Source of the DNA: a virus
Lineage: Duplodnaviria; Caudoviricetes
IMG/VR virus record: IMGVR_UViG_3300021255_002056
Span: 21,081 to 85,080 of that record
Length of the DNA stretch: 64,000 nt
Strand: one strand, 5' to 3'
Part shown: positions 26,646-44,229 of the stretch, piece by piece
Numbering within the stretch: position 1 is the stretch's first letter
How the letters are laid out: each line of letters starts with the position of its first letter
Program-made: the position numbers and the translations under genes
Notes under the pieces: model-generated
Told to the model about the DNA's origin: nothing
Seen by the model: the letters and a program-made list of their open reading frames with translations, nothing else
Database searches by the model: none

Positions 26646-28478
26646 CTATTCTCCAGTAGTACCGTCAGCTGCTTTCAGAACGATAGCAGAGTGAGGAAGT
26701 ACTAAAGCACCAGAGCAACGAGTTTCAATCAAATACTTCATCTTGTTGTAGTCGATATCGAAATCGTCGAACAGAGATACTTCGCCACCCTTGTTCATAC
26801 CAACATTGTAGTCGTTCAGATCGAGAGCAACAGCGTAAACATCTTCTGGCATAACGCTAGTCGGAACCTTGACAACACGGTCAACAGACATTGCAGAAGC
26901 AACTTCATTCATGCCTTTGTAAAGTCTCTGACCAATCTTATCTTCCATTAACAGAATGTCAGAAACGATATCAGTCCTAACGAATGCAGTGATGTTACCA
27001 GAACCCTCATAGTCGTCAAGAGACTTAACCATCTGATTAGTAACAGCATGAGCTAATGTTTCATCATCCTTAGGCGTAACGGTATATGCCATTGCATAAA
27101 GATTTTCTTCTGTATCCTTAACAACTGGGATAATGTTTTGTTCATTGATCTTATCAGGATCAGTAGTAGATCTGCCATCACCGAAAATATAAGCACGTGC
27201 CCTTTCTTCATCAAGCTTCATGCGCATTTCTTTCTTGACCCAAGCGATCATATCAATATCAGTGATATCGATGACATCGTCACGGTCAAAGCTCTGAAGC
27301 TTGTAAATAGTTGTCGGATCAACTTTTCTCTTTAAGAGTTTGAAGACTTCTTCGACCTTCTTAGTACCCTTAACATAACCCTTAGCTCTAGCTGTAGCAG
27401 GAGTAATGTCAGCGTGCGTCATCTTGATCTTAGCGAACGGAGTCTTATGCACACCATTGTTGATTACAGAAATCCATCCATTAGGAATAGTGTTTACAAA
27501 CGGAATATCGTTCGAAACATTTCTATATTCCGGTGCCAAATAGTCAAGATGCTCAACACTATGAACAAGAACTTCTTCATTGTTCAGTCCATGAGCTAAT
27601 AAAGATTCCTTAACAGAACCGTATCTCTTTGCATCCTGCAAAGCGCTCATAATTTCAGCAGACATGCCATCGTTTTCGATGACTTCTTCATTGTCAAACG
27701 CGTTATGCTTCATTTCTTTTTCCTCTTCTTCATCATCATTTTCGCCAGCAGAAGCTAAAGCTTCGCCGACAAGGTATTCAGTAACTTTTCTCTGTTCAGG
27801 CGTCATAGAATCTAAAACGTCTTTTACAGTCATATCATCTTTTTTATCAGCCATTTCTTTTTCCTCTCCGTTTTTGTCTGATTCATCAGCAGAATGAGTA
27901 AGTTCTTCTTTTCTTTCAGTTTCTTCTACCGTTTCTTTATCTTTAACTTCCTCTTTTTCTGATTCTTCAGGATCATCTACAACTTCGATTTCATCAGATT
28001 CGTCACTATGCTCGACAATTAAATCTTCGCCAGTATAGATTTCAGCTCCAACAGCTACTGGATCGTCATCAATACTGTGTGCCATCACATATTCAATCGA
28101 TGCTCCAGGATTTGCTCCAGCAAGAACTAAGCTAACTTCTCTAATAACACCATGCAAAACATCACCATTAGGCGTTTGCTTCAATCCATTAGCAAAGATT
28201 GATAAGCTAGCAATGTCACCATGCTGCAAAATAGCTTTAATCCTTTGTGATTTAGGAAGCTCATTGAAATAGCCATACGCTTTTACACCCTCATCGGAGT
28301 TCTTCAATAGCGCATGGCCTAAAATGTTGTCTGGATCATTATGCTGATGATTCCAAACAAGCGGTACGGTAACACCATCACAATCTTTGAACGCATTATG
28401 ACGAATCGTTCTTCCGTCGGAGCATTTTAAATCGTTTCTAGTGGCCCAACCCCAAAAATCGTAATCTTTTTTAGCCAT
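26646..28478 (-). CDS. Prohead protease-scaffold-major capsid fusion (HK97 fold)
   Basis: N-terminal protease (LVWNHQH, ASLSI, EVSLV), acidic linker, C-terminal capsid domain (FDDFDIDYNKMKYLIETR). Confidence 0.88.
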   Translation of the reverse strand: MAKKDYDFWGWATRNDLKCSDGRTIRHNAFKDCDGVTVPLVWNHQHNDPDNILGHALLKNSDEGVKAYGYFNELPKSQRIKAILQHGDIASLSIFANGLKQTPNGDVLHGVIREVSLVLAGANPGASIEYVMAHSIDDDPVAVGAEIYTGEDLIVEHSDESDEIEVVDDPEESEKEEVKDKETVEETERKEELTHSADESDKNGEEKEMADKKDDMTVKDVLDSMTPEQRKVTEYLVGEALASAGENDDEEEEKEMKHNAFDNEEVIENDGMSAEIMSALQDAKRYGSVKESLLAHGLNNEEVLVHSVEHLDYLAPEYRNVSNDIPFVNTIPNGWISVINNGVHKTPFAKIKMTHADITPATARAKGYVKGTKKVEEVFKLLKRKVDPTTIYKLQSFDRDDVIDITDIDMIAWVKKEMRMKLDEERARAYIFGDGRSTTDPDKINEQNIIPVVKDTEENLYAMAYTVTPKDDETLAHAVTNQMVKSLDDYEGSGNITAFVRTDIVSDILLMEDKIGQRLYKGMNEVASAMSVDRVVKVPTSVMPEDVYAVALDLNDYNVGMNKGGEVSLFDDFDIDYNKMKYLIETRCSGALVLPHSAIVLKAADGTTGE

Positions 28479-28499: not shown

Positions 28500-29798
28500 T
28501 TAAATCTCAGATATTTTTAATTCACCCAAGCTTTGATTTTCATTGCCATTGGATTGCCCTTCACTTTCCTCAGGAACAGTATCTGCGACATTCGGGAAAT
28601 TATCGCCAGTTGCCTGGTTAATGTTCTTATTTCTAAGTTCATTAGCTCTTGGATCGTCTGACGGAAGTAACCCAACTACCTGCCTGAATTCATTAGAAGA
28701 CATAATTTCATTTCTCGTAAACTTATCAGCTAACTCAGCAAGTTTAGATGTTGGCACAAGCTTGAATGGATCCCTAAAGAACGCTATTGACTGATGCTGT
28801 GTAATCGCGGTCTTTGTTAGAAACTTTCGTTTCATTTCATCTGCAATAGCTGAAACAATAGGCTCAATAGTTCGCGAGTAGTAATTGATCATAGTTTGCT
28901 CGTCAGCTGTTCCGTCAAGTATCGCCGTAGTGATTCCTAACTGCCCGTATAAGATGTTTGTCAAGTATTCAATACGTGATAAAAGATCGTTCTCCAACGG
29001 ACGATTCAACTGTGTGATCTTTTCTGTTGCGTCGACATATGCTATACCGTATTTACTTCCGGTAAGCTGCATCTCAATGTCTTTACGACGTTGCTCTGCT
29101 TGCTGCCTTTTTGTTTCAGTTTTAACTAAATAAGGCAACTGAATAATCATATCCAGTTTACCCGATCCGCTTTGTTCATCTACAATGTCCATTAACGTTA
29201 AAGTACGAATTAATCGCTGCAACGTTGAGTTTGGCTCATTCATTATTGAATATAGCGGATTTTCAATGATTGCAACGTTCTTTTTAGCAAACCATAATTC
29301 CTCATGACCGCCAGTTCGATCGTTGTAAACATTGACCTTTACATTGTCGGGAGACCAACCAACGATCTTCCCGACACGTAAAGAGAGTATATCAAAAGAC
29401 CCCTTATCGGGATCTATTGATGTATCGATTGGTACAATTGCTATTGTGCCTTCATCAAACATTGACATAACAATATCTTGAATAAAAGCTCGTCCGGTCT
29501 GATCTTTATTTGCCGAAATTGATAAGCAATCGTTTAATCTTGAATCCATCTTGCTTACAAAGTAGCCATTAGCATCAAGCTTTACATGCTCGAATCTAAT
29601 CTGCGCTACATCCAAAGCAATACGGTTATAGATAGATGTGACTATAGTCCTCTCGTTTCCTCGAGACAATCTATGCCGATATGGATTGTATGATGAATAG
29701 GAAACCTGACCATAATCATACATGTAAGGTTCAGGAGTCGGATCCCTATTCATGAAGGCGTTCCATGCGTGGATTAGCCTATCGCCGAATTTTGGCAT
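28500..29798 (-). CDS. Portal protein (HK97-like)
   Basis: 432 aa; IYNRIALDVAQI, FTRNEIMSSNEFR; directly upstream of the capsid gene. Confidence 0.9.
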   Translation of the reverse strand: MPKFGDRLIHAWNAFMNRDPTPEPYMYDYGQVSYSSYNPYRHRLSRGNERTIVTSIYNRIALDVAQIRFEHVKLDANGYFVSKMDSRLNDCLSISANKDQTGRAFIQDIVMSMFDEGTIAIVPIDTSIDPDKGSFDILSLRVGKIVGWSPDNVKVNVYNDRTGGHEELWFAKKNVAIIENPLYSIMNEPNSTLQRLIRTLTLMDIVDEQSGSGKLDMIIQLPYLVKTETKRQQAEQRRKDIEMQLTGSKYGIAYVDATEKITQLNRPLENDLLSRIEYLTNILYGQLGITTAILDGTADEQTMINYYSRTIEPIVSAIADEMKRKFLTKTAITQHQSIAFFRDPFKLVPTSKLAELADKFTRNEIMSSNEFRQVVGLLPSDDPRANELRNKNINQATGDNFPNVADTVPEESEGQSNGNENQSLGELKISEI

Positions 29799-30248: not shown

Positions 30249-30713
30249 TTATCGGCTAATAACAAGATCTGGCCTCGTTAAAATAATATTAGCGTTTTCA
30301 ACCAATACTGCTTGTGAACTAGTGTTCACAACAGAAACGTTTTCACAGCAGCCATTCCATACTTCAACATTAATAGCTCTACTAACATTGAAATATGCAT
30401 TAGCTTCAGTTGGTGTAACTACCATTTCACTTGCAGGAATAATTGAACCATCAATAGACAACGCTAAAGAAATAGGTTCGACTGTTCCGCCTTCAGGAAT
30501 TGCAATATTTGCACCAAAATCAACTAAATACTGGGCCTCTTGTTTCTTGCAACAGCATCCGCATCTATTCGGTGTCCAGCCACTCAATAAGAAATTTCCA
30601 GAACCATCTCTATGTCGGACGAATCCTCTAGTGCATGGCACTGGTGCGTCTGTAAAAACTACGACTCCTCCTTGAGCGACGGTCTGCGTGGCATTTGCAC
30701 TGTATTCAGCCAT
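30249..30713 (-). CDS. BclA-C/C1q-like all-beta protein, gene 5 of the module
   Basis: Beta-rich 154 aa with CGCCCK and GCCE; pattern resembles the BclA C-terminal jelly-roll. Confidence 0.5.
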   Translation of the reverse strand: MAEYSANATQTVAQGGVVVFTDAPVPCTRGFVRHRDGSGNFLLSGWTPNRCGCCCKKQEAQYLVDFGANIAIPEGGTVEPISLALSIDGSIIPASEMVVTPTEANAYFNVSRAINVEVWNGCCENVSVVNTSSQAVLVENANIILTRPDLVISR

Positions 30714-30723
30714 ATGCCACCTC

Positions 30724-31401
30724 CTAGTTGCAGCCGCAGTTGCCCCAACCAGAATTACAGCAATTTGGATTTGGTACAGTGTAAGCAGGGATCGGTGTAG
30801 GATTCAAATACTGTTCTAACGCCTGAGTCTGAGCAGCATTATTAGCTAAAATCTGAGCTGTCTGAGCATTCTGAGATGCTGCAAGAGCCTGCATATTAAG
30901 CTGAGTCCTAAGCTGAGCAATAGTTTCATTCTTAGCTTCGATTTCCTGCTGGCACATCTTATCAAGAATAGCCTGAGTATTAGCTGTGTTAGACGCAATA
31001 ACATCTCTAAGAGCTTCGGTTAATGCGTTCCTATCCGCACAGTTCTCTGTAGCAACAGTGTATTTAATATCAGCAAGATTAGACGTAATGCCATTTAAAG
31101 CCTGAAGAGTATTCATATTGCCATTGCAACGTGAAACTTCGGCATTAGCAAATCCAGTAGATACAGCTGAAGTGAGACCATTAATACCGCTCATAACTGC
31201 CTGCTGATCAAAACCTTTTTGCATACCGCCATCTCCATATCCTCCGCGACCAAAAGTATTTCCGTTCATCATGAACAGGAATAATACTAAAAGCCACCAA
31301 GCTCCATCACCATTAAATCCAAAACCATTTCCATTGTTACCGCCAGTTACAGCTGCAACATCTGCTGCAGATAAACCAGAACCGTAATCAGTAAGCGCCA
31401 T
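30724..31401 (-). CDS. Gly/Asn-rich membrane-anchored coiled-coil protein, gene 4 of the module
   Basis: GGNNGNGFGFNGDG, hydrophobic AWWLLVLFLFMM, Q/A coiled coil, C-terminal NCCNSGWGNCGCN. Confidence 0.7.
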   Translation of the reverse strand: MALTDYGSGLSAADVAAVTGGNNGNGFGFNGDGAWWLLVLFLFMMNGNTFGRGGYGDGGMQKGFDQQAVMSGINGLTSAVSTGFANAEVSRCNGNMNTLQALNGITSNLADIKYTVATENCADRNALTEALRDVIASNTANTQAILDKMCQQEIEAKNETIAQLRTQLNMQALAASQNAQTAQILANNAAQTQALEQYLNPTPIPAYTVPNPNCCNSGWGNCGCN

Positions 31402-32033: not shown

Positions 32034-32417
32034 TTATCTCTCCTTTCTCCAATAATAAATAGGAACTTCATCTCCGGAATCCCATGCATCATAGTAAAAA
32101 CCATCTTTTACAGCCACCACATGCTCTCCTGTGGCTAAAAGAAAAGTTCCGTTTGGATTATCCTCGCAGAACTGTTTTACTGTGTAACAATCTGGACAGG
32201 TATTTGAAATATTAAATCGCATATACCCTTTTGATTTAAGATATGATCCCCATACATTATTAGCTGATGGCATATCTTTCATCTCAAATCCTTTTAACAT
32301 AACTTCGGTATACGTCTTATCCCAAGATAAATCTAGTAATATAGATAGTCCTCGAATAACGCAATCACCAACTTTTATACCTTTTGGATTTGGATTATAG
32401 AATACAAATCTCTCCAT
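32034..32417 (-). CDS. Small papain/C39-like peptidase-fold protein, gene 1 of the module
   Basis: GDCVIR (Cys), EHVVAV (His), YDAWDSG (Asp) in papain-like order. Confidence 0.5.
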   Translation of the reverse strand: MERFVFYNPNPKGIKVGDCVIRGLSILLDLSWDKTYTEVMLKGFEMKDMPSANNVWGSYLKSKGYMRFNISNTCPDCYTVKQFCEDNPNGTFLLATGEHVVAVKDGFYYDAWDSGDEVPIYYWRKER

Positions 32418-32428
32418 TTTGATTTATA

Positions 32429-33436
32429 CTAATTAAAGTGCCCGAACAAATATTGTGCTATTAATTCTGTAGAAGTATGTGTGGAATTTGCGATATTCTT
32501 AATACTTGTTCCAGAATTAAATAACTCTCCTATTTTTTTAATTTGTTCTTTAGTTAATGTGTAACCGCTATATGTCATATCTCTTTCTTTATCTTTATTC
32601 TTATCTTTATTCTTATCTTTATTCTTATCTTTATCTTTATTTTGTTTATTAGTTTCGTATACGTTTATGTCATTTGTTTCTTTATACTTATCATTTAAAG
32701 CTTTCGTTCTGTTATAGTCAGCTTTTTTATTTTCTATATTTGCTAAATTATTCATATACTCCGACTCTTTTTTAGCAGCCGCATACTTATCTTCTGCAGT
32801 GTCTTTTTTAGTCATATTATTAATTGCTGCTTCGATAAGTTTCTTACCAGCATCTTGCATTGCCGGAACAACAACCTTATCCATCATTAACTTGGTAAAC
32901 TGTTCACCTCTTGAAACTGGTTTTGGATCAAGTTCTTTGATTTTATTTCTAACATCAGCAGCATCTTTTTCAAGTTTTAATCTAGCAATATATTTTTCAA
33001 GCTGTTTATCAGTTAATTCTGAAATATTTTTATTTCTTGGCGAACGATTTTTTTCCGTATTAATTTTTGTGTAATCATCAACTTTCTTATTTAGCTGCTT
33101 TTTAGTGTCATTAATATCGTCTACTGTCGCTTTTTCATCAGCAGCTTTAGCCAATTTTCGTGCAGTACTAGTAATTCCCTTCAATTTTGGGGACATGGCA
33201 TTATCGATCGCTTTTCTTTCAGCTCTGGTGGTTTTAATATATTTTCCATCAGCTGCTTTACGATACTTATAAACGCCACTAGATGTCATAATATACTCGC
33301 CAGATGAAAGTTTTCTATAGCGTGCTTTGCCCTCCTCGGTTAAAGAACCATCAGGATTTTGATAGCGTCGTACACCCCATTTTTGACCGAGGATTCCATG
33401 ATGATACAATTCATCTTTTGTCAAATAATACTCCAT
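32429..33436 (-). CDS. Basic protein with HHGILGQKWG N-terminal domain, putative internal virion protein
   Basis: ELYHHGILGQKWGVRRYQNPDGSLT; Lys-rich; KDKN repeats; C-terminal HTH-like GTSIKNIA...STELIAQY. Confidence 0.75.
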   Translation of the reverse strand: MEYYLTKDELYHHGILGQKWGVRRYQNPDGSLTEEGKARYRKLSSGEYIMTSSGVYKYRKAADGKYIKTTRAERKAIDNAMSPKLKGITSTARKLAKAADEKATVDDINDTKKQLNKKVDDYTKINTEKNRSPRNKNISELTDKQLEKYIARLKLEKDAADVRNKIKELDPKPVSRGEQFTKLMMDKVVVPAMQDAGKKLIEAAINNMTKKDTAEDKYAAAKKESEYMNNLANIENKKADYNRTKALNDKYKETNDINVYETNKQNKDKDKNKDKNKDKNKDKERDMTYSGYTLTKEQIKKIGELFNSGTSIKNIANSTHTSTELIAQYLFGHFN

Positions 33437-33451
33437 TTTGAATCCTCCAGA

Positions 33452-34030
33452 TTACTGATTGCGTTGATGAGAATATTTATCTTCCAAATAATCTGCAAAG
33501 CTGTCCCAACCGGTTTCCCCTCCGTAAAGAACTATAGTATTAACTGCATAGTTGCTATATTCTCTTAATAATGATTGAAGCGAAGAACTATCTTTTGGCG
33601 TAATGGAATCTAATTCCATATCATATTTACGCAAAATAGCATTTATCTTGTCTAGTTTTGCTTGAAGTTTTCTTGTCTTTGAACTTAAACTATTTGCTTT
33701 GATCTCAGCTCTTCTAGCTTTTTCTTCAAGCTTTGCTGCTTTTTCTTTGGATGTAAACAGTCCAGTTTCTTTTTTTCTAAGTTTCGCAGCTTTATTCTCA
33801 AGCTTAGCTATCTTAGTTCCATGCTTTTGTGTTTCTTTATCTATCTCGGATTGTATGTCTTTGGCTTTTTTTACATAATTATCATATTCGCCTCTTAACT
33901 CGGCGTAACGAATTTTGCCTTCTGGAGTTAATGAGCCATCCGGATTCTGATAACGACGAATTCCCCATTTTTGTCCGAGAATTCCATGATGCTCTAAATA
34001 ATCTTGCTTAGTTAAATAATATTCGCTCAT
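33452..34030 (-). CDS. Second HHGILGQKWG-domain protein
   Basis: Start reassigned to MSEYY (GGAGG RBS); YLEHHGILGQKWGIRRYQNPDGSLT followed by a coiled coil. Confidence 0.75.
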   Translation of the reverse strand: MSEYYLTKQDYLEHHGILGQKWGIRRYQNPDGSLTPEGKIRYAELRGEYDNYVKKAKDIQSEIDKETQKHGTKIAKLENKAAKLRKKETGLFTSKEKAAKLEEKARRAEIKANSLSSKTRKLQAKLDKINAILRKYDMELDSITPKDSSSLQSLLREYSNYAVNTIVLYGGETGWDSFADYLEDKYSHQRNQ

Positions 34031-34034
34031 AATA

Positions 34035-34286
34035 TTAGTCCTCCAATAAACTAATAGATAGTTCTTTTCCACCTATAAATTCTTCATATGAAATCATAGT
34101 TGGAGAAAAAACACTTACCCTACCAGTTTTCTTTTCAACTCCAACCAAACTATCCAATTCATTTTCGTTAGGATCGAGACGGTAATCAAACACAAAATAT
34201 GATTCGTATTCAATTAAATTGCACAATGTCAGTCCTTCAGAAAAATCTGATTCTTTCACAATTTTATATGCTTCTTTTAATGTCAT
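34035..34286 (-). CDS. Putative immunity protein (Imm35/YrhB-like)
   Basis: 83 aa, acidic, EYESYFVF...VGVEKKTGRV; directly after a papain-fold gene. Confidence 0.55.
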   Translation of the reverse strand: MTLKEAYKIVKESDFSEGLTLCNLIEYESYFVFDYRLDPNENELDSLVGVEKKTGRVSVFSPTMISYEEFIGGKELSISLLED

Positions 34287-34302
34287 ATTTTTCTCCTAAC
34301 GC

Positions 34303-36129
34303 TTAATGACGCAATTTTTTAGCATACTCAAGATCATCAACCCAATCCATGTAATCATCAATTTCAGATTGTGCTCCATATGCATCAAGAGTATCTATAA
34401 TTTCTTCGCAAATATCTTCAAGCTCGCTATATGTCATAGACATTTTATTCTTTCCAGCAGGATGCAAAAGTTCATTTTTACTGATTTTGTTTTCTTCCAA
34501 AGCTTTGGTGTAATAGTTATACATATTTAAATAAACCCAAGCAATTTGCTCATTTTTATCAGCTGTATAATTACCATGATCAGCAATATCCGTAGGACAT
34601 GTAACAAATGAAATTCTTTCAGTGTCTACTTCAAGATTATCCGTTCTTAGTAAATAAACTCCTGAAAGACCCGTTTTTTCTTTATTAGTTTTGTCCATGG
34701 CAGTTGTTTTAACCAAATATTCAGTAATGTCTATTTCATGATCAGGGTTGCCAATTCTTTTTTCATCCGGTTGAGTATCAATAAATGTAACTACGCCATT
34801 ATGAACTTCGTAATTAAATATGTGAGCACTAGACGGATACCAGTCAACACTTATAAAACCGGTTGAATCTTTTCCATTAGATTTTTTAAGTATTTTGGAA
34901 ATTAAAGAATCTTTAAGTTTTCCAGCAACTTCGTAATCTTGTTCTTTATTCTTATATGGCTTATAAGTATCATCTAAAGTCTTATAAACATCTGAAAAAT
35001 CTAAATGATCAAATTTTGGAGATGTAAGACCGTTCTTTGTTTTATAAAAACTAGCTATTTCCGAAAGAGGCAATCCTTTAAAAATATTAGGTATAGCTTT
35101 TACGTCAACACCTTTTAAACGCAGATCATAAGCTATTGAACAAGAATAGCAGTTTTTCTGAAAAAGTTCTTTATCTGATCTAAAATAAGGATTTACTGCA
35201 TCTCTACTTTTTTGTATTGAAGTCTTTTCGCTTATAGGCTTAAATACTTTAGATAGATCCTTATTTTTCTCAATAAAGTCATTAAATGAGCTGTTAACGT
35301 TTTTAGCTGCATCATTTGCTTTTTTTATAAAACTATTAATAAAAGAAATACCATTTTTCGTGAATTCTTTTCTTTTATTATTAATTGAGGTTTTGGCATC
35401 GCCTATTTTATTATTAACCGTGTTTTCAATAGCATTCTTAGCATCAGAAATTGCATTCCTAGCATAGTCAGCCATATTTAATACTCTATTTTTTTCTTTA
35501 TTTATTTTTGACGTGACTTTAGATTTTGTATTATCTATTGTGTCATTAACAATTGTGTTGATAGATTTAATTTTTCTATTAACTATATCTTTAGATTTTT
35601 CTACAAAATTTTTACCTTTTTCACTTTTCTTTTTATCAAGTTTTTCAATTTTTTCGCTTTTCTTTTTATCAAGTTTTTTAACTTTTTCTGAATATTTTGT
35701 AAAAGGAACTTTCTTTGAAACTACTTCACTAGACTCATTTTGAGTCTCTTTTTTTCTAGCATTAGTCTTTGGACCAAATGCTTTTCGTTTCTCTGAATTA
35801 TTTGAATCATTTTTATCTTCAGAATTTGTGTCTTTCTGACTAGATGTTTTATATGGTTTGAACAAATTAGCAAATATATTTGTAATACTATTTTTTGCTA
35901 GAACAAATGAACGTTTATTTGTAAAACCAGTTTTTCCTCTGCTATAAGCATCGTATTCAGCTTTCGTATAAAAATACTTGTATTTTGGTTTTGAATCTGA
36001 ACCAAGATTTATTCTCTCATAATATTTATGATGTTCTTTTTTACCGCCTAATTTAATTCCCCAGTGATATAATTCATTTTCCTTATGGATAGCATACTCT
36101 TGATTATGTTTTTCCATAGTGCAGTTCAT
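34303..36129 (-). CDS. Leader-bearing protein with C-terminal papain-fold (Tox-PL-like) domain
   Basis: ELYHWGIK leader; NCYSCSIAYDLRLKGVDVKA, SAHIFNYEV, FIDTQ triad. Confidence 0.72.
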   Translation of the reverse strand: MNCTMEKHNQEYAIHKENELYHWGIKLGGKKEHHKYYERINLGSDSKPKYKYFYTKAEYDAYSRGKTGFTNKRSFVLAKNSITNIFANLFKPYKTSSQKDTNSEDKNDSNNSEKRKAFGPKTNARKKETQNESSEVVSKKVPFTKYSEKVKKLDKKKSEKIEKLDKKKSEKGKNFVEKSKDIVNRKIKSINTIVNDTIDNTKSKVTSKINKEKNRVLNMADYARNAISDAKNAIENTVNNKIGDAKTSINNKRKEFTKNGISFINSFIKKANDAAKNVNSSFNDFIEKNKDLSKVFKPISEKTSIQKSRDAVNPYFRSDKELFQKNCYSCSIAYDLRLKGVDVKAIPNIFKGLPLSEIASFYKTKNGLTSPKFDHLDFSDVYKTLDDTYKPYKNKEQDYEVAGKLKDSLISKILKKSNGKDSTGFISVDWYPSSAHIFNYEVHNGVVTFIDTQPDEKRIGNPDHEIDITEYLVKTTAMDKTNKEKTGLSGVYLLRTDNLEVDTERISFVTCPTDIADHGNYTADKNEQIAWVYLNMYNYYTKALEENKISKNELLHPAGKNKMSMTYSELEDICEEIIDTLDAYGAQSEIDDYMDWVDDLEYAKKLRH

Positions 36130-36132
36130 TAT

Positions 36133-36441
36133 TTAACGTTTTTTGTTTAATAAGTCCCTTAATATATCACTGGTAGGCTTATTATACTTTTTAATTTTTA
36201 TGCTAGTAGTTCTAATTCCATTTAGCAATCTTGCTATGAATCTTTTTCCTTTATATGCAAGTCTATCTGCTCTTTTTTGAATGTCGTCTAACCCATTTTC
36301 TTTATTTGAAGAATCATCGTCTGATAATTTATCTCCATATAAATAATAGGTTTTTCCGTTTTTTACATATTTTGAAATATACTTATGCTTCTTCCATCCA
36401 GATCCTTTTGCCGAATGATATAACTCATATCCCATAAACAC
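36133..36441 (-). CDS. Short leader-bearing protein
   Basis: ELYHSAKGSGWKKHKY resembles the N-terminus of the 608-aa protein. Confidence 0.6.
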   Translation of the reverse strand: MFMGYELYHSAKGSGWKKHKYISKYVKNGKTYYLYGDKLSDDDSSNKENGLDDIQKRADRLAYKGKRFIARLLNGIRTTSIKIKKYNKPTSDILRDLLNKKR

Positions 36442-36447
36442 ATCTCC

Positions 36448-36687
36448 TCAAATAATCTTCTTTCCAGATCTGTATTGGTCTAAAGGAATATCAAATGGAA
36501 AGAACGCTTTGATTTCCTTTGTTGTTTTATTAATAGAAAAACTTCTATTTAAAGGACCTTCATCTTGATGTTTAATTACATAATCATTCGGTATTAAATT
36601 AAACACCAAAATATCGCCATAGTCATAAACCGAATCAATTATGTATGACGGAAAGGCATTATTAATTATTTCCTTGTATTCTTCCAT
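36448..36687 (-). CDS. Putative immunity protein (Imm35/YrhB-like)
   Basis: 79 aa, YDYGDILVF...FSINKTTKEI; overlaps the stop of a papain-fold gene. Confidence 0.55.
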   Translation of the reverse strand: MEEYKEIINNAFPSYIIDSVYDYGDILVFNLIPNDYVIKHQDEGPLNRSFSINKTTKEIKAFFPFDIPLDQYRSGKKII

Positions 36688-37658
36688 GAACTCTTCCTTT
36701 CGTGTTCAATGGCGTTTATGTATTTAATAGATCCATTTTGATAAATCAACAGATAGCATAAACTATTCTGCTTGAGATGAACCTTTATAAAAGTTTTGTA
36801 CCTTGTAACTGCAAAATTGTTTAGTCTAAACTGACTAGCTAAACAGTCTAACGATAGTAACGCATAGTCATTATCCTTTGGGCAAGTTGTGTCGAATAGT
36901 TTATTCTTCACACATTTTAAAATACGTTCGGTAGGCTCTTCGTTATCTGTACGAAAGTAATATAGTCTATTTAAGTAATCATAGTATTCACTTAAATATC
37001 GAATTTTACTATGCTGGCAATCTCTTAAAATTACTCTGCCATTCAATACCTCATAAATTAATGAATGAGCACCACCAAAAGTCCACATTAAACTAATCTG
37101 TCCTCTTGCGTTGTTACCCTGACTAATCAATTCTTCTTCTATATCAGAACAAGAATAATTAGAGGTGCTCATATACCGGTATCCAGGATACTCTTCATCA
37201 AAACGCTTCTGTTTCAACTCTTTGCCATCGTAAAACGGAGCAGAGTTTTTATGTGTCCACCAAGAATAAATCTCAAATATACTATTAATACTAGAATCAA
37301 TATCAGAATTGTTATGATAATCGTCTGCTTCTACGTCAAAACCTCTTCTTCGGAGATCGTACGCTGCAGAACAATAAGCGCAATTAATAGTAAATGCTTG
37401 ATCATCTTTAAGATAAGGATTAACTCGCTGCATATCATCATTCATACTCATTGGAAATTGTTTTCGCTTAAGATCGGATAATTTATCAGGATTATCCTCT
37501 GAAACTTGATTAAGCATTAATTGAATAGAGTTTTTCCAATTGATTAAAATATTTAACTCTTTTAATCCTTTGCCGTTTGCAGTTAATTTCAATCCTCTAT
37601 TAATATTCGCTAAAAGTTTTGACTTACTGCTTTTCGGAGACCTGATAAACTCATTCAT
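36666..37658 (-). CDS. Papain-fold (Tox-PL-like) protein
   Basis: VNP..., NCAYCSAAYDLRRRGFDVEA, GAHSLIYEV, LRDCQ. Confidence 0.72.
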   Translation of the reverse strand: MNEFIRSPKSSKSKLLANINRGLKLTANGKGLKELNILINWKNSIQLMLNQVSEDNPDKLSDLKRKQFPMSMNDDMQRVNPYLKDDQAFTINCAYCSAAYDLRRRGFDVEADDYHNNSDIDSSINSIFEIYSWWTHKNSAPFYDGKELKQKRFDEEYPGYRYMSTSNYSCSDIEEELISQGNNARGQISLMWTFGGAHSLIYEVLNGRVILRDCQHSKIRYLSEYYDYLNRLYYFRTDNEEPTERILKCVKNKLFDTTCPKDNDYALLSLDCLASQFRLNNFAVTRYKTFIKVHLKQNSLCYLLIYQNGSIKYINAIEHERKSSWKNTRK

Positions 37659-37668
37659 AACTTATCTC

Positions 37669-39432
37669 CTAAAAACTATCTTTGTTATGTTTAAACGCAA
37701 CAAAAGCGTCAAGCATTGCTGCTACGCAGTCTATTTTCTGATCGGAACGTTTCTTATATAACTTCCGGTTTCCATTAGTATCTTCCAAAGTAATACAGTT
37801 GCCCATTGCAAAGTTCATGATTAATTCATCAAATAAAAGAAGCCTCTGTTCAGAAAGCTTCTTTAATTCTCCTAATGGAACAGATTCTGTTCTAGCACCC
37901 TGAATAACTTTTTCAACTCCAAATGGTCCATGCTCTGTTTCCCATCGCTCTACAAATTCTTTTGCATTATACGGGTCAAATCCAAAGCAGTTAACATCAT
38001 AGCCATGAACATCTATAAATCTATCTAGGTCATCATAGACTTCCATCATGTCTAAAATTGTTCCATCCATGATCATCAGGCTGCCTTCTTTGACAAAATC
38101 ATCGTATTTACTCTTAAGCGCTGACGGTAATTTGTCATAAGTAAATGAGCTTATATAGTTTCTAGTCTTTACACCAAAGGCGTCACCTCTAAGTGGGAAC
38201 AAAAATGTAAACGCACAAAAGTCATCACCCTGAGACATATCTGCTCCAAGAGAACACTGCATTTTATCAAATGATCTAAAATGGTGAGGAAGAGTTTCTT
38301 CGTACGGAAAATAATATGTATAACCTTCCAAAGGAATTCCAAATCTCTTAGCCAGAATATCGTTTCTATTTGATGGAGATTTCTCAGCTCGCTCCTTATC
38401 CAACTGGTAGGTTTCATAGCTTACTGTAATACCTAGATTTGGATTCGCTTTAACCCACATAGCAGGATCGTCAACCTCTTCAACAGAATCCAATCTGTAA
38501 TACCAGATCGATACTCTTGGGTTGATGTAATCTCCTTTAAGTATGTCGATTAGCTCCATTTTGATAGTATCACCTGGGCCATTTCGAACTGTACCTTCTG
38601 AAGAAGTAGCAACAATCAAATAGTCGTTTACTTCTTCAATACCACCTTGCTCCTTAGTACAAGACTGCTCAATAGCGCCAATGACGTCTTCCCTTGTATC
38701 TCCAGACAACCATTCATCGACTGTTGCGATCTTAACACGATAACCCTGAAGCTTATCACGGCTCATAGGTTTTACTTCGATCGTAGATCCGGTAATAAAA
38801 TTCTGAATACCTTTCTTAGTAGAGGCAAGCTTTACTCTATCAGCTCTATTACCGGTTGTGTTTTGTAAAGATCCGTAGGTCATGAACTTGAACATAGGTC
38901 CTCTAGATCGATTAATAGCCGTTCGGATCGGAGATAGCACTTCATCAGCTTGAGCCATTGTTGGAGCTGTAACTGTTTGGCCATTAGCACTACGATCACA
39001 GATCAGAAAATATGCCTGAAGAAAAGCTGCATACATAGACTTTGCAGCACCTCTGGCAATAATTAAATATTGTTTTGTAATTAGGCGTTTCTTAAAATAT
39101 TTGCTAACATAGTGGCCTCCTCGTCCGTTAGGATCTGGAACCCATACACTACGTTCAACAAAGTAATACCATCCAAAAATCTGTTCTGACCAAAGCTTAA
39201 ACGACTCAAGCATTTTAACATCGCCACCGTTTGTAAGAGTTAATTCATTCTCACAAAAAGCAACAAAGCCATTCATTGCATCAGGATCATAGTAGACTCC
39301 TGGATTACTAATAAGATCATCGATACGGTTCATCTCCATAGCGATGTACTTATTAATTTTTGTCTCTCCTCTCATTACGGAATCTCTAAATCTACCGTAA
39401 TATATCGGTACGGCAGTATTAGACAACGGCAT
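37669..39432 (-). CDS. terL: Terminase large subunit
   Basis: Walker A IARGAAKS, Walker B ATVDEW, nuclease LGADMSQGDD and KIDCVAAMLDA. Confidence 0.95.
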   Translation of the reverse strand: MPLSNTAVPIYYGRFRDSVMRGETKINKYIAMEMNRIDDLISNPGVYYDPDAMNGFVAFCENELTLTNGGDVKMLESFKLWSEQIFGWYYFVERSVWVPDPNGRGGHYVSKYFKKRLITKQYLIIARGAAKSMYAAFLQAYFLICDRSANGQTVTAPTMAQADEVLSPIRTAINRSRGPMFKFMTYGSLQNTTGNRADRVKLASTKKGIQNFITGSTIEVKPMSRDKLQGYRVKIATVDEWLSGDTREDVIGAIEQSCTKEQGGIEEVNDYLIVATSSEGTVRNGPGDTIKMELIDILKGDYINPRVSIWYYRLDSVEEVDDPAMWVKANPNLGITVSYETYQLDKERAEKSPSNRNDILAKRFGIPLEGYTYYFPYEETLPHHFRSFDKMQCSLGADMSQGDDFCAFTFLFPLRGDAFGVKTRNYISSFTYDKLPSALKSKYDDFVKEGSLMIMDGTILDMMEVYDDLDRFIDVHGYDVNCFGFDPYNAKEFVERWETEHGPFGVEKVIQGARTESVPLGELKKLSEQRLLLFDELIMNFAMGNCITLEDTNGNRKLYKKRSDQKIDCVAAMLDAFVAFKHNKDSF

Positions 39433-41232: not shown

Positions 41233-44229
41233 TCAAGCTTTCAAAGCCTTGGCAATAGTACTTGCTGAAACACCAAGGGCTGCGGCTATTTCGGCATTAG
41301 TCTTTCCACTTTGTGACATTGCTTTTGCTCGGCTCTTCATTGCGTCTGTCATGACTTTTCTTGAACTCGGTGTAGCTCTCTCCCTTAGCTTATCCGTGTC
41401 TGTATGGTCAAGTACTTTTCTTAAAGTATTAGCATGAACTGCACCAGCTTGAATGGCTTCCCAAATGCTATCTGTAATTGTGATTTCATTCCTTTGAGCT
41501 CCTACTCTAGCCCTAGCCTTGGTGAGTTCTACCTGCCTCAGTTTCTTCTTATCTTCCTTCTTAATGTCTGGATTACTCTGTACTTTAGCTTTGAAGTTTA
41601 CTGTAGCTATTACTTGAGCTTGTCTTTCTCTAGGCTTATTCTTAGTTGATAGGTCTAACTGGTTCTCAAGCTCTTGTACCTCATTAGCGTATTTCTTAGC
41701 TGCAGCACTGCTGTATTCAGAACCTTTAGTATCATAACTAAGCTTCCTAGCCTGGTTGGCTAGGCTCTTCATAGTATTAGCATAAGAAGCATAAAGCTGT
41801 TCCATAGGGGAATTACTATCAGATATTAAAGTTCTAGCATCATCTGTTTCAGCCATCTTTGTGCTTGGCTGTGTACGAGTTTTCTCTATTATCTTTACTT
41901 CCCCAGTCTTTTTATTAACCTTCTCTATTGTATACCTAGCTTTAGGATCTTCTTTGTATAGCAATGCTCCTTCAGGTTTAGATGGATCATAATCTGGGCG
42001 ACCCTTAATATTTATTCTTGGCTGGCCTTTTCTTCTTACTACATCTTTCTGAGACTTAGCCATTGAAATAAGAGTTGACGCACCATATACTTCTTTTCCT
42101 TCTTCATCCAGATGAGCTTGATACTTCTTTTTAAGGCGTTCAATCTCATTCTGAGCGTAACTCGATTGGTAATCAAGTTTATGCTTTTCCGCATCAATAA
42201 CAACCATTGAATGACGAACTGCTTTTGCTAATTCATCTTCTGTAGCACCTTTAATGGTCATATCATTGATAAGATTTGAAATACGCCCCATTTCATTTTG
42301 AGTATTCTTCATTACTTTAAATTCGTATCCTGCTTTATTAAAGTAATGCTTATTACCATTCTTATCTTCGTAAGTCTTACTAGGATCGCAGCCATATACT
42401 TCTTTTGGCTCAAATCCTTCTAAGCCTTTCAAAGACTTTCCATTGTTATTCTTGATTCTGATAGTACTGTTTGTCGGAATTACCATAACAGTATCACCAT
42501 CAAAATCAGCTCCAGAAAGCTTTTCTGCAACAGAAGCATTAATACCGACAGCATCTCTTGAGTTCTTGCCGATCATTGCAACACCATCTTTCTGTTTATT
42601 ATTAACAGTTAGAATTGGTATCTCAAATGGTCCACCATGCGGATAACGAATTAACGCGACCTGTTCACCATCTTTATAGTTAGGTGCATAGATTTCATTA
42701 CTTTTCATAGACGGAATAGGTAAAATAACCTGGAACTTCTGTCTTGGTAAAGCCGCTGCCGTTAGGTGAACTGCTGACGAATCACAATCACTTGCAAATG
42801 AGTCTAAGTAATACTTTTTAAGCGTATTATTTTCAAGACTCATAATGTCTTTTAACTCTTCTTGCTTTTCAAGAACAGCTAAATTCAACTGTCTCTTTGC
42901 TAACTGAACTGTTTGTTTAGATAAGAACTGTGCTGAAAGTGTATCCTTCCAGTTGTCCCAGTCACCTTCATCTGCTCTTTTATTAATCAGACTAAGATGC
43001 TGTTTACCATCTTTACCGGTATAATAACTTTGGCCACCCTGTTCTTTATCTTTAATCAAAGAACCGAATGGATTATCTCTATCAATTTCACCAGTAATTT
43101 TGTCTCTCTTGACATCTTTTAAAACATCAAGTTTAGCAACATCCTTATGTTTATTAGTGTTAAATATCACATCAACACCAGGTGGAAATGAATCTTGATC
43201 AATAGCATAAGCTGCCATACCTTTAATATATTTAGTTCCATCGACAAGGATTCGTACCTGAGCATAATTCTTTTCGCCAAGAGAAAGATCATCTACGTTT
43301 CTTCTAAGTTCAACAAGACCATCTTTTTCTTTACCACCATCTTCAGCATATCTAATCATCAATCTACTGGAATCCATGGACTCAGGGAATTCAAATTTCT
43401 TTTTAAATCCATCAATTCCATTGTTAATAGCTTCATAATCTTTAATACCTTTGATGTGACTATACTCATAAAAATCTTTCCAATTCGCATCTGGTGTAGC
43501 AATGACGTTCATTGTTGTTTGTCTTGCACCAGATGGATCGGTAATGTTAGGAACTCTTCCACCAAATGTCTTATAACCTTCGCCTTCCAAAATATAAACT
43601 GCATCATCGAGCTTAGTTCTAGTGACATTGAGTTCGTTCTCGACACCAGGGCCAATATCAATCATGGCTTTTGGATCAGACTTAGCAAGTTCATTAAGAC
43701 GCTCTTTTAAGAAGTCTGCAGTCTTCAAAGATATCTCAATATTTGCTTTTCTAGAAGGTTCTAAAAGTGATCTAACAGATGATTCATTAGGTAAACCCAT
43801 TTTACGAGCAATCTCAGAATATCCATACTTATGTTTTCCATTTTCATCGTATGTATTCCATAAAGCTTCAGCACGATTAATCTTATCCATCTTGTCAAGA
43901 TTAGATGCAAGAGTAATAGCGTGCCTGTATTCTGTAGTGCTCATCTTTAATATCTTTGCTACAGCGGTTTCACCTTTGAATGTTTTGCCATAATCAGGAT
44001 TCTTAATCTTTTCACCATTCTTGATAATGTATTCTTCATTATCTGTATATGTTCGCTTTTCTTTCCTCAGCTGAGTTACGAACGAAAGAAAATCTCCAGA
44101 ATGCTGGAATGGTGTATCTCCAGAGCCCCAAGGATATCTACCAGATCCAGGAGTTCCTTTAATATGGTCAATACCGTAATGCATTAAAAAATCGTCTAAC
44201 GACGGTTTCTCATAAATCATAAATATCAA
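41233..44229 (-). CDS. Single-subunit two-barrel RNA polymerase-like protein (YonO/RdRP-like) with HTH domains
   Basis: KDG...QVR...IKG, IRYPH, LSGADFDGD, MGRISN, VIDAEKH in the expected order; HTH motifs near both termini. Confidence 0.78.
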   Translation of the reverse strand: MIFMIYEKPSLDDFLMHYGIDHIKGTPGSGRYPWGSGDTPFQHSGDFLSFVTQLRKEKRTYTDNEEYIIKNGEKIKNPDYGKTFKGETAVAKILKMSTTEYRHAITLASNLDKMDKINRAEALWNTYDENGKHKYGYSEIARKMGLPNESSVRSLLEPSRKANIEISLKTADFLKERLNELAKSDPKAMIDIGPGVENELNVTRTKLDDAVYILEGEGYKTFGGRVPNITDPSGARQTTMNVIATPDANWKDFYEYSHIKGIKDYEAINNGIDGFKKKFEFPESMDSSRLMIRYAEDGGKEKDGLVELRRNVDDLSLGEKNYAQVRILVDGTKYIKGMAAYAIDQDSFPPGVDVIFNTNKHKDVAKLDVLKDVKRDKITGEIDRDNPFGSLIKDKEQGGQSYYTGKDGKQHLSLINKRADEGDWDNWKDTLSAQFLSKQTVQLAKRQLNLAVLEKQEELKDIMSLENNTLKKYYLDSFASDCDSSAVHLTAAALPRQKFQVILPIPSMKSNEIYAPNYKDGEQVALIRYPHGGPFEIPILTVNNKQKDGVAMIGKNSRDAVGINASVAEKLSGADFDGDTVMVIPTNSTIRIKNNNGKSLKGLEGFEPKEVYGCDPSKTYEDKNGNKHYFNKAGYEFKVMKNTQNEMGRISNLINDMTIKGATEDELAKAVRHSMVVIDAEKHKLDYQSSYAQNEIERLKKKYQAHLDEEGKEVYGASTLISMAKSQKDVVRRKGQPRINIKGRPDYDPSKPEGALLYKEDPKARYTIEKVNKKTGEVKIIEKTRTQPSTKMAETDDARTLISDSNSPMEQLYASYANTMKSLANQARKLSYDTKGSEYSSAAAKKYANEVQELENQLDLSTKNKPRERQAQVIATVNFKAKVQSNPDIKKEDKKKLRQVELTKARARVGAQRNEITITDSIWEAIQAGAVHANTLRKVLDHTDTDKLRERATPSSRKVMTDAMKSRAKAMSQSGKTNAEIAAALGVSASTIAKALKA

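Follow-up and report, generated by a model that had tools for sequence, protein, structure and literature searches.

Predicted papain-fold Tox-PL1 enzymes and a family of small partner proteins form linked cassettes between terminase and portal in a phage of the Lactococcus 1706 lineage

We analyzed a 64,000-nucleotide (nt) window, bases 21081-85080 of the 85,080-bp genome of a gut phage (IMG/VR record IMGVR_UViG_3300021255_002056), which CheckV rates complete. Between the genes for the large terminase (TerL) and the portal protein, the window carries two large genes, pap330 and pap608, that encode predicted Tox-PL1 papain-fold hydrolases, and each is followed directly by a gene for a small protein, sm79 or sm83. 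The same pairing was found for every Tox-PL1 gene in the related loci that we searched, and the pap608 cassette is exchanged between close relatives. We put at about one in two the probability that these are two exchangeable cassettes of an effector and its cognate inhibitor, with the effector loaded into the head, in a phage of the Lactococcus 1706/Faecalibacterium FP_oengus lineage. All of the cassette genes lie on the minus strand, at the coordinates given by the first-pass annotation, which was made from the letters of the window.

The identification of the two large gene products as predicted Tox-PL1 enzymes is solid, given that the Pfam matches, the catalytic signature, a language-model Atlas, an AlphaFold2 model and the structure matches all agree. 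pap330 (36666..37658, minus strand) encodes 330 amino acids (aa), with the enzyme domain at about residues 70-270 (36849-37451) and an extension at the C-terminus, and has the ribosome-binding site GGAG. pap608 (34303..36129, minus strand) encodes 608 aa, which comprise an N-terminal leader of the kind that we call type C (residues 14-63; 35941-36090), a basic K/N/S-rich linker with an isoelectric point (pI) of 10, the Tox-PL1 domain (residues 300-520; 34570-35232) and, at the C-terminus, an extension that is acidic. The domain common to the two proteins aligns at 30% identity over about 286 columns (BLASTP E 7e-19). Residues N27, C28, H137, D152 and Q154 (pap608-domain numbering) are invariant in an alignment of nine homologues that includes both window proteins, as is an RTDN motif farther downstream; NC-H-DxQ is the published signature of Tox-PL1 (Zhang et al. 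2012, PMC3482391). The Pfam model PF15644 (Tox-PL1/Gln_amidase) has a gathering cut-off of 24.1 bits, which pap608 exceeds (31.1 bits for the protein and 33.1 in six-frame translation) and at which pap330 lies exactly in six-frame translation (24.1 bits; 22.7 for the protein). In the Atlas, 20 of the 30 clusters nearest to pap330 carry PF15644, and the others include SpvD or OspI.

The AlphaFold2 model of pap608 residues 300-520 had a mean predicted local distance difference test score (pLDDT) of 80.5 and a predicted template-modeling score of 0.83, and it places C28 at the opening of helix 28-39 and, on adjacent strands, H137 (within strand 136-144) and D152 (after strand 147-151). In an exhaustive comparison with VIA-align, the best fold matches of this model were SpvD of Salmonella (PDB 5lq7; Z 11.4, root-mean-square deviation 2.9, 147 residues), OspI of Shigella (PDB 3w30; Z 8.9) and YopQ (Z 7.8), followed by C39 peptidases, AvrPphB and staphopains, and the next 30 or so rows were all papain-like. 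Foldseek against the PDB gave a weak best match, again to SpvD (E 0.029), and the predicted viral structures of BFVD gave matches down to E 2.8e-10 under names such as "Capsid maturation protease and MuF-like fusion protein," "VIP2-like toxin," "Minor capsid protein" and "Papain fold toxin 1." The enzyme profile retrieved nothing meaningful from the sequences of solved structures, a word-based search of viral contigs returned no relatives of pap608, and a pattern scan of bacterial genomes with the NC..C motif had no matches either. The window proteins have the papain-like Cys-His-Asp core in common with SpvD and OspI; they differ in that identity is only 16-17% and in that SpvD and OspI are type III effectors with eukaryotic targets and without a dedicated partner gene, whereas the host here is bacterial. 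We therefore follow the first-pass annotation in reading the two domains as homologous, divergent members of the Tox-PL papain fold, each with a genuine Cys-His-Asp triad in the motifs that it had quoted; by sequence and model, they are predicted to act as peptidases or glutamine deamidases of the SpvD/OspI type.

The linkage between enzyme and small protein was evaluated by building hidden Markov models (HMMs) of both families and searching every open reading frame (ORF) in 125 related loci (numbered L003 to L122 where cited below). A gene of about 80-110 aa lies directly downstream of all 20 Tox-PL1 genes in these loci, and the dedicated downstream gene that had been proposed for each window copy is confirmed. 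Seventeen of the 20 downstream genes match the partner HMM at E<1e-3, and the other three, recognized by motif only, represent a divergent subtype that keeps the hairpin and the V-N-K-x-T element of the family. When distant members of the partner family were chosen without regard to context, four of four were located directly after a Tox-PL1 gene. The pairwise-identity matrices of enzymes and partners are strongly correlated (Mantel r 0.85, reached by 0 of 5000 permutations), which shows that enzyme and partner are passed on together. The arrangement also extends to actinophages: in Mycobacterium phage Jeeves, gp2 (PF15644, 40.9 bits) is followed by gp3, a protein of 104 aa with the motif ITVNKTTGEY, and in Gordonia phage Orla, gp7, in which a VG15/MuF-type head domain precedes PF15644 (40.8 bits), is followed by gp8 of 78 aa, which hhalign aligned to the partner profile with 72% probability (E 3.4e-5, 62 columns). 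Two cassettes per phage, as in the window, occur in L099 and L122 of the lineage as well.

The two small window genes clearly encode members of one family, judged on their sequences. sm79 (36448..36687, minus strand) specifies the 79-aa partner of pap330 and overlaps the end of that gene by 22 nt; sm83 (34035..34286, minus strand) specifies the acidic, 83-aa partner of pap608, and a strong ribosome-binding site, AGGAG, precedes its ATG by 7 nt. The pattern that the first-pass annotation had seen in both proteins corresponds to a weak pairwise match (E 7e-4) and to homology at the level of the family: a small protein from L037 is about 35% identical to both, and our partner HMM matches sm79 at E 1.4e-24 and sm83 at E 1.1e-20, so that their relatedness is far above chance level. 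Members consist of a helix, a YxxVF hairpin and then V-(N/D)-K-x-T-x-x-V-x-x-F-x-P. In an alignment of 88 sequences, F60 and P62, and then A6, F33 and K52, are invariant or nearly so, and no W is conserved. At E<=1e-3, a profile search of 1.8 billion representative proteins returned 295 clusters, 67 of them at E<=1e-10, and their lengths are nearly all 75-90 aa; in the few longer matches, the small domain continues by read-through into the next gene, which has a DUF7211 leader, which mirrors the junction between sm83 and its neighbor p206 in the window. The pI is 4.9 for sm79 and 4.35 for sm83, and the partners have no signal peptide.

This family is unnamed. We obtained no match for it in Pfam, NCBIfam, PADLOC or the sequences of PDB chains, with NCBIfam and PADLOC returning only coiled-coil noise. 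The partners had been proposed to be of the Imm35 type. Imm35 (PF15567, YrhB-like) is an immunity family tied specifically to Tox-PL1 and was suggested to be a peptidase inhibitor (Zhang et al. 2012, PMC3482391), and it resembles the partners in being a small alpha+beta protein encoded beside a Tox-PL1 gene. The conserved residues differ, however, with W and S/T in Imm35 compared to F, P and K in the partner family. The PF15567 HMM gave no match at E<=1 to sm79 or sm83, at E<=10 to eight family members or at E<=10 to the six-frame translation of the genome, and the sole link between the families was a language-model score of 0.75, which lies under the level that we count as evidence. On these sequence tests, the small genes are not of the Imm35 type. 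AlphaFold2 predicted sm83 as one helix and a four-stranded sheet (alpha1-beta4) with a pLDDT of 95.1. Its neighbors among solved structures were weak (best Z 5.1) and included the PepSY proteins YpmB and YpeB (Z 4.8-4.9) and, recurrently, a BLIP-like protein (Z 4.7-4.9); Foldseek against the PDB was uninformative. An Atlas cluster in which 12% of the members carry PepSY reached a template-modeling score of 0.62 to the partner, and Pfam detected no PepSY domain among the family members. Scores of this size are too low to tell true kinship from a small fold that is common. We consider the apparent PepSY/BLIP-like resemblance of the modeled fold to be a lead only.

The position of the cassettes is a hotspot of variation. 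Its upstream boundary is the gene for TerL (37669..39432, minus strand; Pfam TerL_nuclease 113 bits, phrog_9 E 1.5e-105), which has more than 578 relatives at 64-100% identity, and its downstream boundary is the portal gene (28500..29798, minus strand; Pfam Phage_portal 69 bits, phrog_12). Among 62 relatives with both genes in view, the distance between them ranges from 9 bp to 6.9 kb, and 19 have no gene there at all; the gap of 7.9 kb in the window is the largest insert in comparison with those 62. The most informative relative is L003, whose flanks are about 91-95% identical to the window in DNA. L003 keeps pap330 and sm79 at 92% DNA identity, with an extra 458-bp leader gene ahead of pap330, and has, in place of a 3.9-kb block of the window (36371-32424, comprising the rest of p102, pap608, sm83, p206 and p335), 2.5 kb of different genes that also bear leaders. 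Upstream, the breakpoint falls at about 36371, inside the leader-coding DNA of p102. Replacement of this kind is reminiscent of the way in which polymorphic toxin loci have their toxin modules displaced. The expected variability of the locus among relatives was thus observed, and it is the whole 608-aa cassette that is absent from L003. The first-pass annotation had regarded the 330-aa copy as a possible orphan or swappable cassette without a leader. It is indeed leaderless but no orphan fragment: it belongs to a conserved subfamily of about 315-350 aa and has its own ribosome-binding site and partner, and the cassette that is swapped between close relatives is the other one.

The proteins encoded around the enzymes are connected by their N-termini, which fall into two leader types, DUF7211 (PF23847; ELYHHGI-G-KWG-RRY...) and type C (xLxH, HKYI, NGK-x-x-Y-x-Y), with HMM matches that do not overlap. 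Type C heads pap608, about 20 other ORFs and p102 (36133..36441, minus strand), a basic protein of 102 aa that was absent from the genes listed in the first-pass annotation and that consists of the leader (ELYHS...HKYI...NGKxxYxY; HMM E 5.5e-21) and a short tail. The stop codon of p102 lies 3 nt ahead of the pap608 start, and homologues of this leader-only protein precede a pap608-type gene in L083 and L084. DUF7211 heads p206 and p335 in the window. p206 (33452..34072, minus strand; PF23847 21.9-25 bits, leader HMM E 3.6e-19) is a cargo protein with a basic coiled-coil body, and its true start is probably M15 at 34030, judging from the ribosome-binding site GGAGGA that precedes this codon. 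p335 (32429..33436, minus strand; PF23847 26.4 bits, 30.1 in six-frame translation, cut-off 27; leader HMM E 2.4e-20) is likewise a cargo protein; its body is basic, and its C-terminal end resembles a helix-turn-helix (HTH). In the first set of 88 loci, the DUF7211 leader heads 146 ORFs and is nearly always N-terminal; 55 of the ORFs with this leader lie in the TerL-portal gap and 74 upstream of TerL. The bodies behind it fall into 51 unrelated clusters, in which Pfam recognizes GNAT acetyltransferases, LigT-type 2H phosphoesterases, HTH domains and Tox-PL1, and the cargo proteins are strongly basic (pI 9-10). The LigT-type 2H fold occurs in some phage enzymes that destroy cyclic-nucleotide defense signals.

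Tox-PL1 domains are found behind several of these N-termini. They follow type C in pap608, L037, L083-L085 and L088, are fused directly to DUF7211 in L060, L064, L099, L105 and L122, stand behind a variant with the motif HYG...GRYPWGSGD in L033 and behind the MuF-type domain in Orla, and are leaderless in pap330, L003 and L005. The DUF7211 HMM matched neither pap330 nor pap608, the latter having type C instead. In two relatives (L033 1579-2709 and L064 11712-12647), a predicted hydrophobic, transmembrane-like helix is located between the leader and the enzyme domain, unlike in the window copies. The YonO-like RNA polymerase of the window also has a leader-like N-terminus (HYG...GRYPWGSGD; DUF7211 18 bits, model positions 3-13), and orf7 of phage 1706 (L092 2501-3889), which is annotated as a structural protein, carries DUF7211 motifs at residues 29-58 and 178-202 and a type-C motif at residues 324-365, an arrangement that looks like several cargo units joined in one polyprotein. 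The protease-capsid polyprotein has several hydrophobic-x-His-Ser/Asn sites, of which His133, His257 and His306 show at least 90% conservation among 49 sequences (48 relatives and that of the window). These sites resemble the xLxH start of the leaders, which is compatible with a shared, putative cleavage motif of the prohead protease. Our literature search on DUF7211 and the leader peptide found nothing.

A parallel to these leaders exists in the capsid-targeting sequences of phage T4, which are tags on internal proteins and on Alt that are cleaved by the prohead protease. Both are short N-terminal tags on unrelated, mostly basic proteins encoded in a head-gene context, and here a hydrophobic-x-His element occurs in the tags and in the capsid polyprotein. 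The sequences are unrelated, however, and the candidate capsid-loading tags of this lineage are most conserved downstream of the putative cut site.

The closest known systems are the MuF polymorphic toxins. Zhang et al. (2012, PMC3482391) described Tox-PL1 fused to MuF next to the genes for terminase, portal and capsid, and Jamet et al. (2017, PMC5576092) described small, immunity-like ORFs downstream of MuF toxins. In the latter work, MuF toxins are characterized by a variable C-terminal toxin domain, a downstream ORF of <150 aa and a packaging-module location in temperate phages. The same context is found here, with the order TerL-cassettes-portal, partners of 79 and 83 aa and an integrase in the genome. 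Like MuF toxins such as Orla gp7 or that of Microbacterium phage GardenState, the window enzymes combine a PF15644 catalytic domain, a place in the head/packaging module, a downstream small ORF and a polymorphic C-terminus. They differ from them at the N-terminus, which carries no MuF or VG15 and is instead a type-C leader of about 45 residues, DUF7211 (in relatives) or nothing, and in position, given that the genes lie between terminase and portal and not after the portal, with two cassettes in one phage. Pfam detected only PF15644 on pap608 and pap330, compared to VG15 and PF15644 on Orla gp7; the non-MuF N-terminus and modular leader that had been suggested for the 608-aa protein were thus borne out. 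The locus is a variation on the known theme of a MuF toxin plus an immunity gene and not a new kind of system. New in this locus are leaders that do not depend on MuF, a position in a hotspot between terminase and portal, double cassettes that recur and a Tox-PL1-tied partner family across phages of two bacterial phyla.

The wider genome is consistent in layout with a cultured relative. All long genes of the window are on the minus strand, and the order of transcription is the YonO-like RNA polymerase (41233-44229, minus strand; 998 aa, a YonO/RdRP-like single-subunit enzyme with phrog_4291 E 0 and a DxDGD motif), an HNH endonuclease, a connector-like protein, TerL, 13 genes, the portal and the protease-capsid fusion (26646-28478, minus strand). 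Two relatives are in culture, Lactococcus phage 1706 and Faecalibacterium phage FP_oengus; the former has the same gene order and is 57% identical in TerL, 43% in portal and 32% in the capsid fusion. A preprint (10.1101/842583) connects the lineage, by way of the YonO-like polymerase, with a supercluster of actinophages. The genome also encodes a tyrosine integrase about 5 kb upstream of the window (G000:C1:15826-16257, plus strand; PF00589 52 bits, in a 402-aa frame), and the phage may be temperate because of this gene. The earlier impression that lysogeny genes are lacking is accurate for the window and wrong for the genome.

Other genes of the hotspot drew our attention as well. A 127-aa protein (32034-32417, minus strand; phrog_3754 E 5e-31), found also in L003, L036 and L081, has a Cys...His...Asp pattern that resembles a small papain/C39-like enzyme. 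Closer to the portal (30249-31401, minus strand) are genes for a protein of 225 aa (phrog_16490) with a C-terminal Cys-rich tail (CCNSGWGNCGCN) and one of 154 aa (phrog_20016) with the internal Cys-rich runs CGCCC and GCC.

We propose that, late in infection, the head operon would produce both the enzyme and its cytoplasmic partner, which would bind the enzyme and keep it inactive in the producing cell. The leader, with its xLxH element and basic linker, would load the enzyme into the procapsid while the partner stays behind, and the prohead protease that is fused to the capsid protein could trim the leader after the His. In the next infection, the enzyme would enter with the DNA and cleave or deamidate a cytoplasmic host protein, with a possible role in host takeover, counter-defense or competition. 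Recombination in the conserved leader-coding DNA would swap cassettes between phages. Several points weigh against this model. The Mantel correlation could come from shared descent alone; a search for enzyme-partner fusion proteins found none, which is weak evidence; the small family as a whole is not uniformly acidic (median pI 7.9); and no inhibitor or immunity family that is known matches it significantly, the best solved-structure Z being 5.1. In addition, pap330 is matched by neither leader HMM, which leaves its route into the capsid, if it has one, unexplained, and the "structural protein" label on orf7 of phage 1706 is a database annotation.

The main competing explanation is that the pair is a toxin-antitoxin, abortive-infection or superinfection-exclusion moron that acts inside the lysogen or infected cell and never in the virion, with the hotspot serving as a site for accessory genes. 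The integrase would suit such a role, as would the leaderless pap330 and a locus as hypervariable as a moron island, and some relatives sit on contigs of 109-160 kb, compared to 85 kb for this phage, which may reflect integration in bacterial chromosomes. We nevertheless judge this explanation unlikely. The genes lie inside the late head operon, where promoter-like and terminator-like sites at the cassettes were not in excess over shuffled sequence; most Tox-PL1 copies share their leaders with other head-module genes; the actinophage Tox-PL1 domains are fused to MuF-type head proteins; and PADLOC recognized nothing.

A somewhat more doubtful possibility is that the small protein acts as a chaperone or as an adaptor for loading, which would provide solubility or hand the enzyme over to the procapsid, and not an inhibitor of the active site. 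Strict synteny and co-inheritance fit any obligate partner, and the lack of a match to a known immunity family is also in line with this possibility. On the other hand, polymorphic toxin systems usually have immunity encoded by the small gene downstream (Jamet et al. 2017, PMC5576092), adaptors are usually encoded upstream, and the weak fold neighbors of the partner, PepSY and BLIP-like, are inhibitor-type folds.

Least probable of all is that Tox-PL1 is a processing peptidase of head assembly, trimming leaders or releasing cargo on a schedule set by the small protein. Zhang et al. (2012, PMC3482391) proposed this role for the MuF fusions, "capsid maturation protease" is the annotation of actinophage homologues, and xLxH recurs in the leaders and the capsid polyprotein. 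We rejected a leader-trimming Tox-PL1 as the main reading because most leader-bearing relatives have no Tox-PL1 (about 20 copies in about 125 loci). In addition, phages of the lineage possess a prohead protease of their own, as part of the capsid fusion, and a housekeeping protease would not be duplicated, diverged to 30% identity and swapped between genomes that are about 95% identical in the flanking DNA.

Head-loaded effectors with cognate inhibitors remain our preferred reading, and a broader version of it can be offered tentatively, at odds somewhat below even. The xLxH leaders (DUF7211, type C and HYG...GRYPWGSGD) may constitute one capsid-loading code, in a lineage across Firmicutes and Actinobacteria, that injects a recombining repertoire of Tox-PL1, GNAT, 2H phosphoesterase and RNA polymerase. 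The family of about 80 aa may be a new class of papain-fold inhibitor that silences Tox-PL1 until packaging, and the whole would amount to polymorphic effector delivery that is independent of MuF.

Delivery of enzymes by the phage particle, together with the DNA, is known from a few models, namely T4, N4, P1 and, by inference, the MuF toxins. A common lineage of gut and soil phages appears to hold an exchangeable set of enzymes at one hotspot, and our results correct the "capsid maturation protease" annotation on many actinophage homologues. If the partner does inhibit its enzyme, the small family would be a new natural class of inhibitors for cysteine hydrolases of the SpvD/OspI type, and the partner would perhaps provide a handle for finding the bacterial targets of these widespread phage enzymes.

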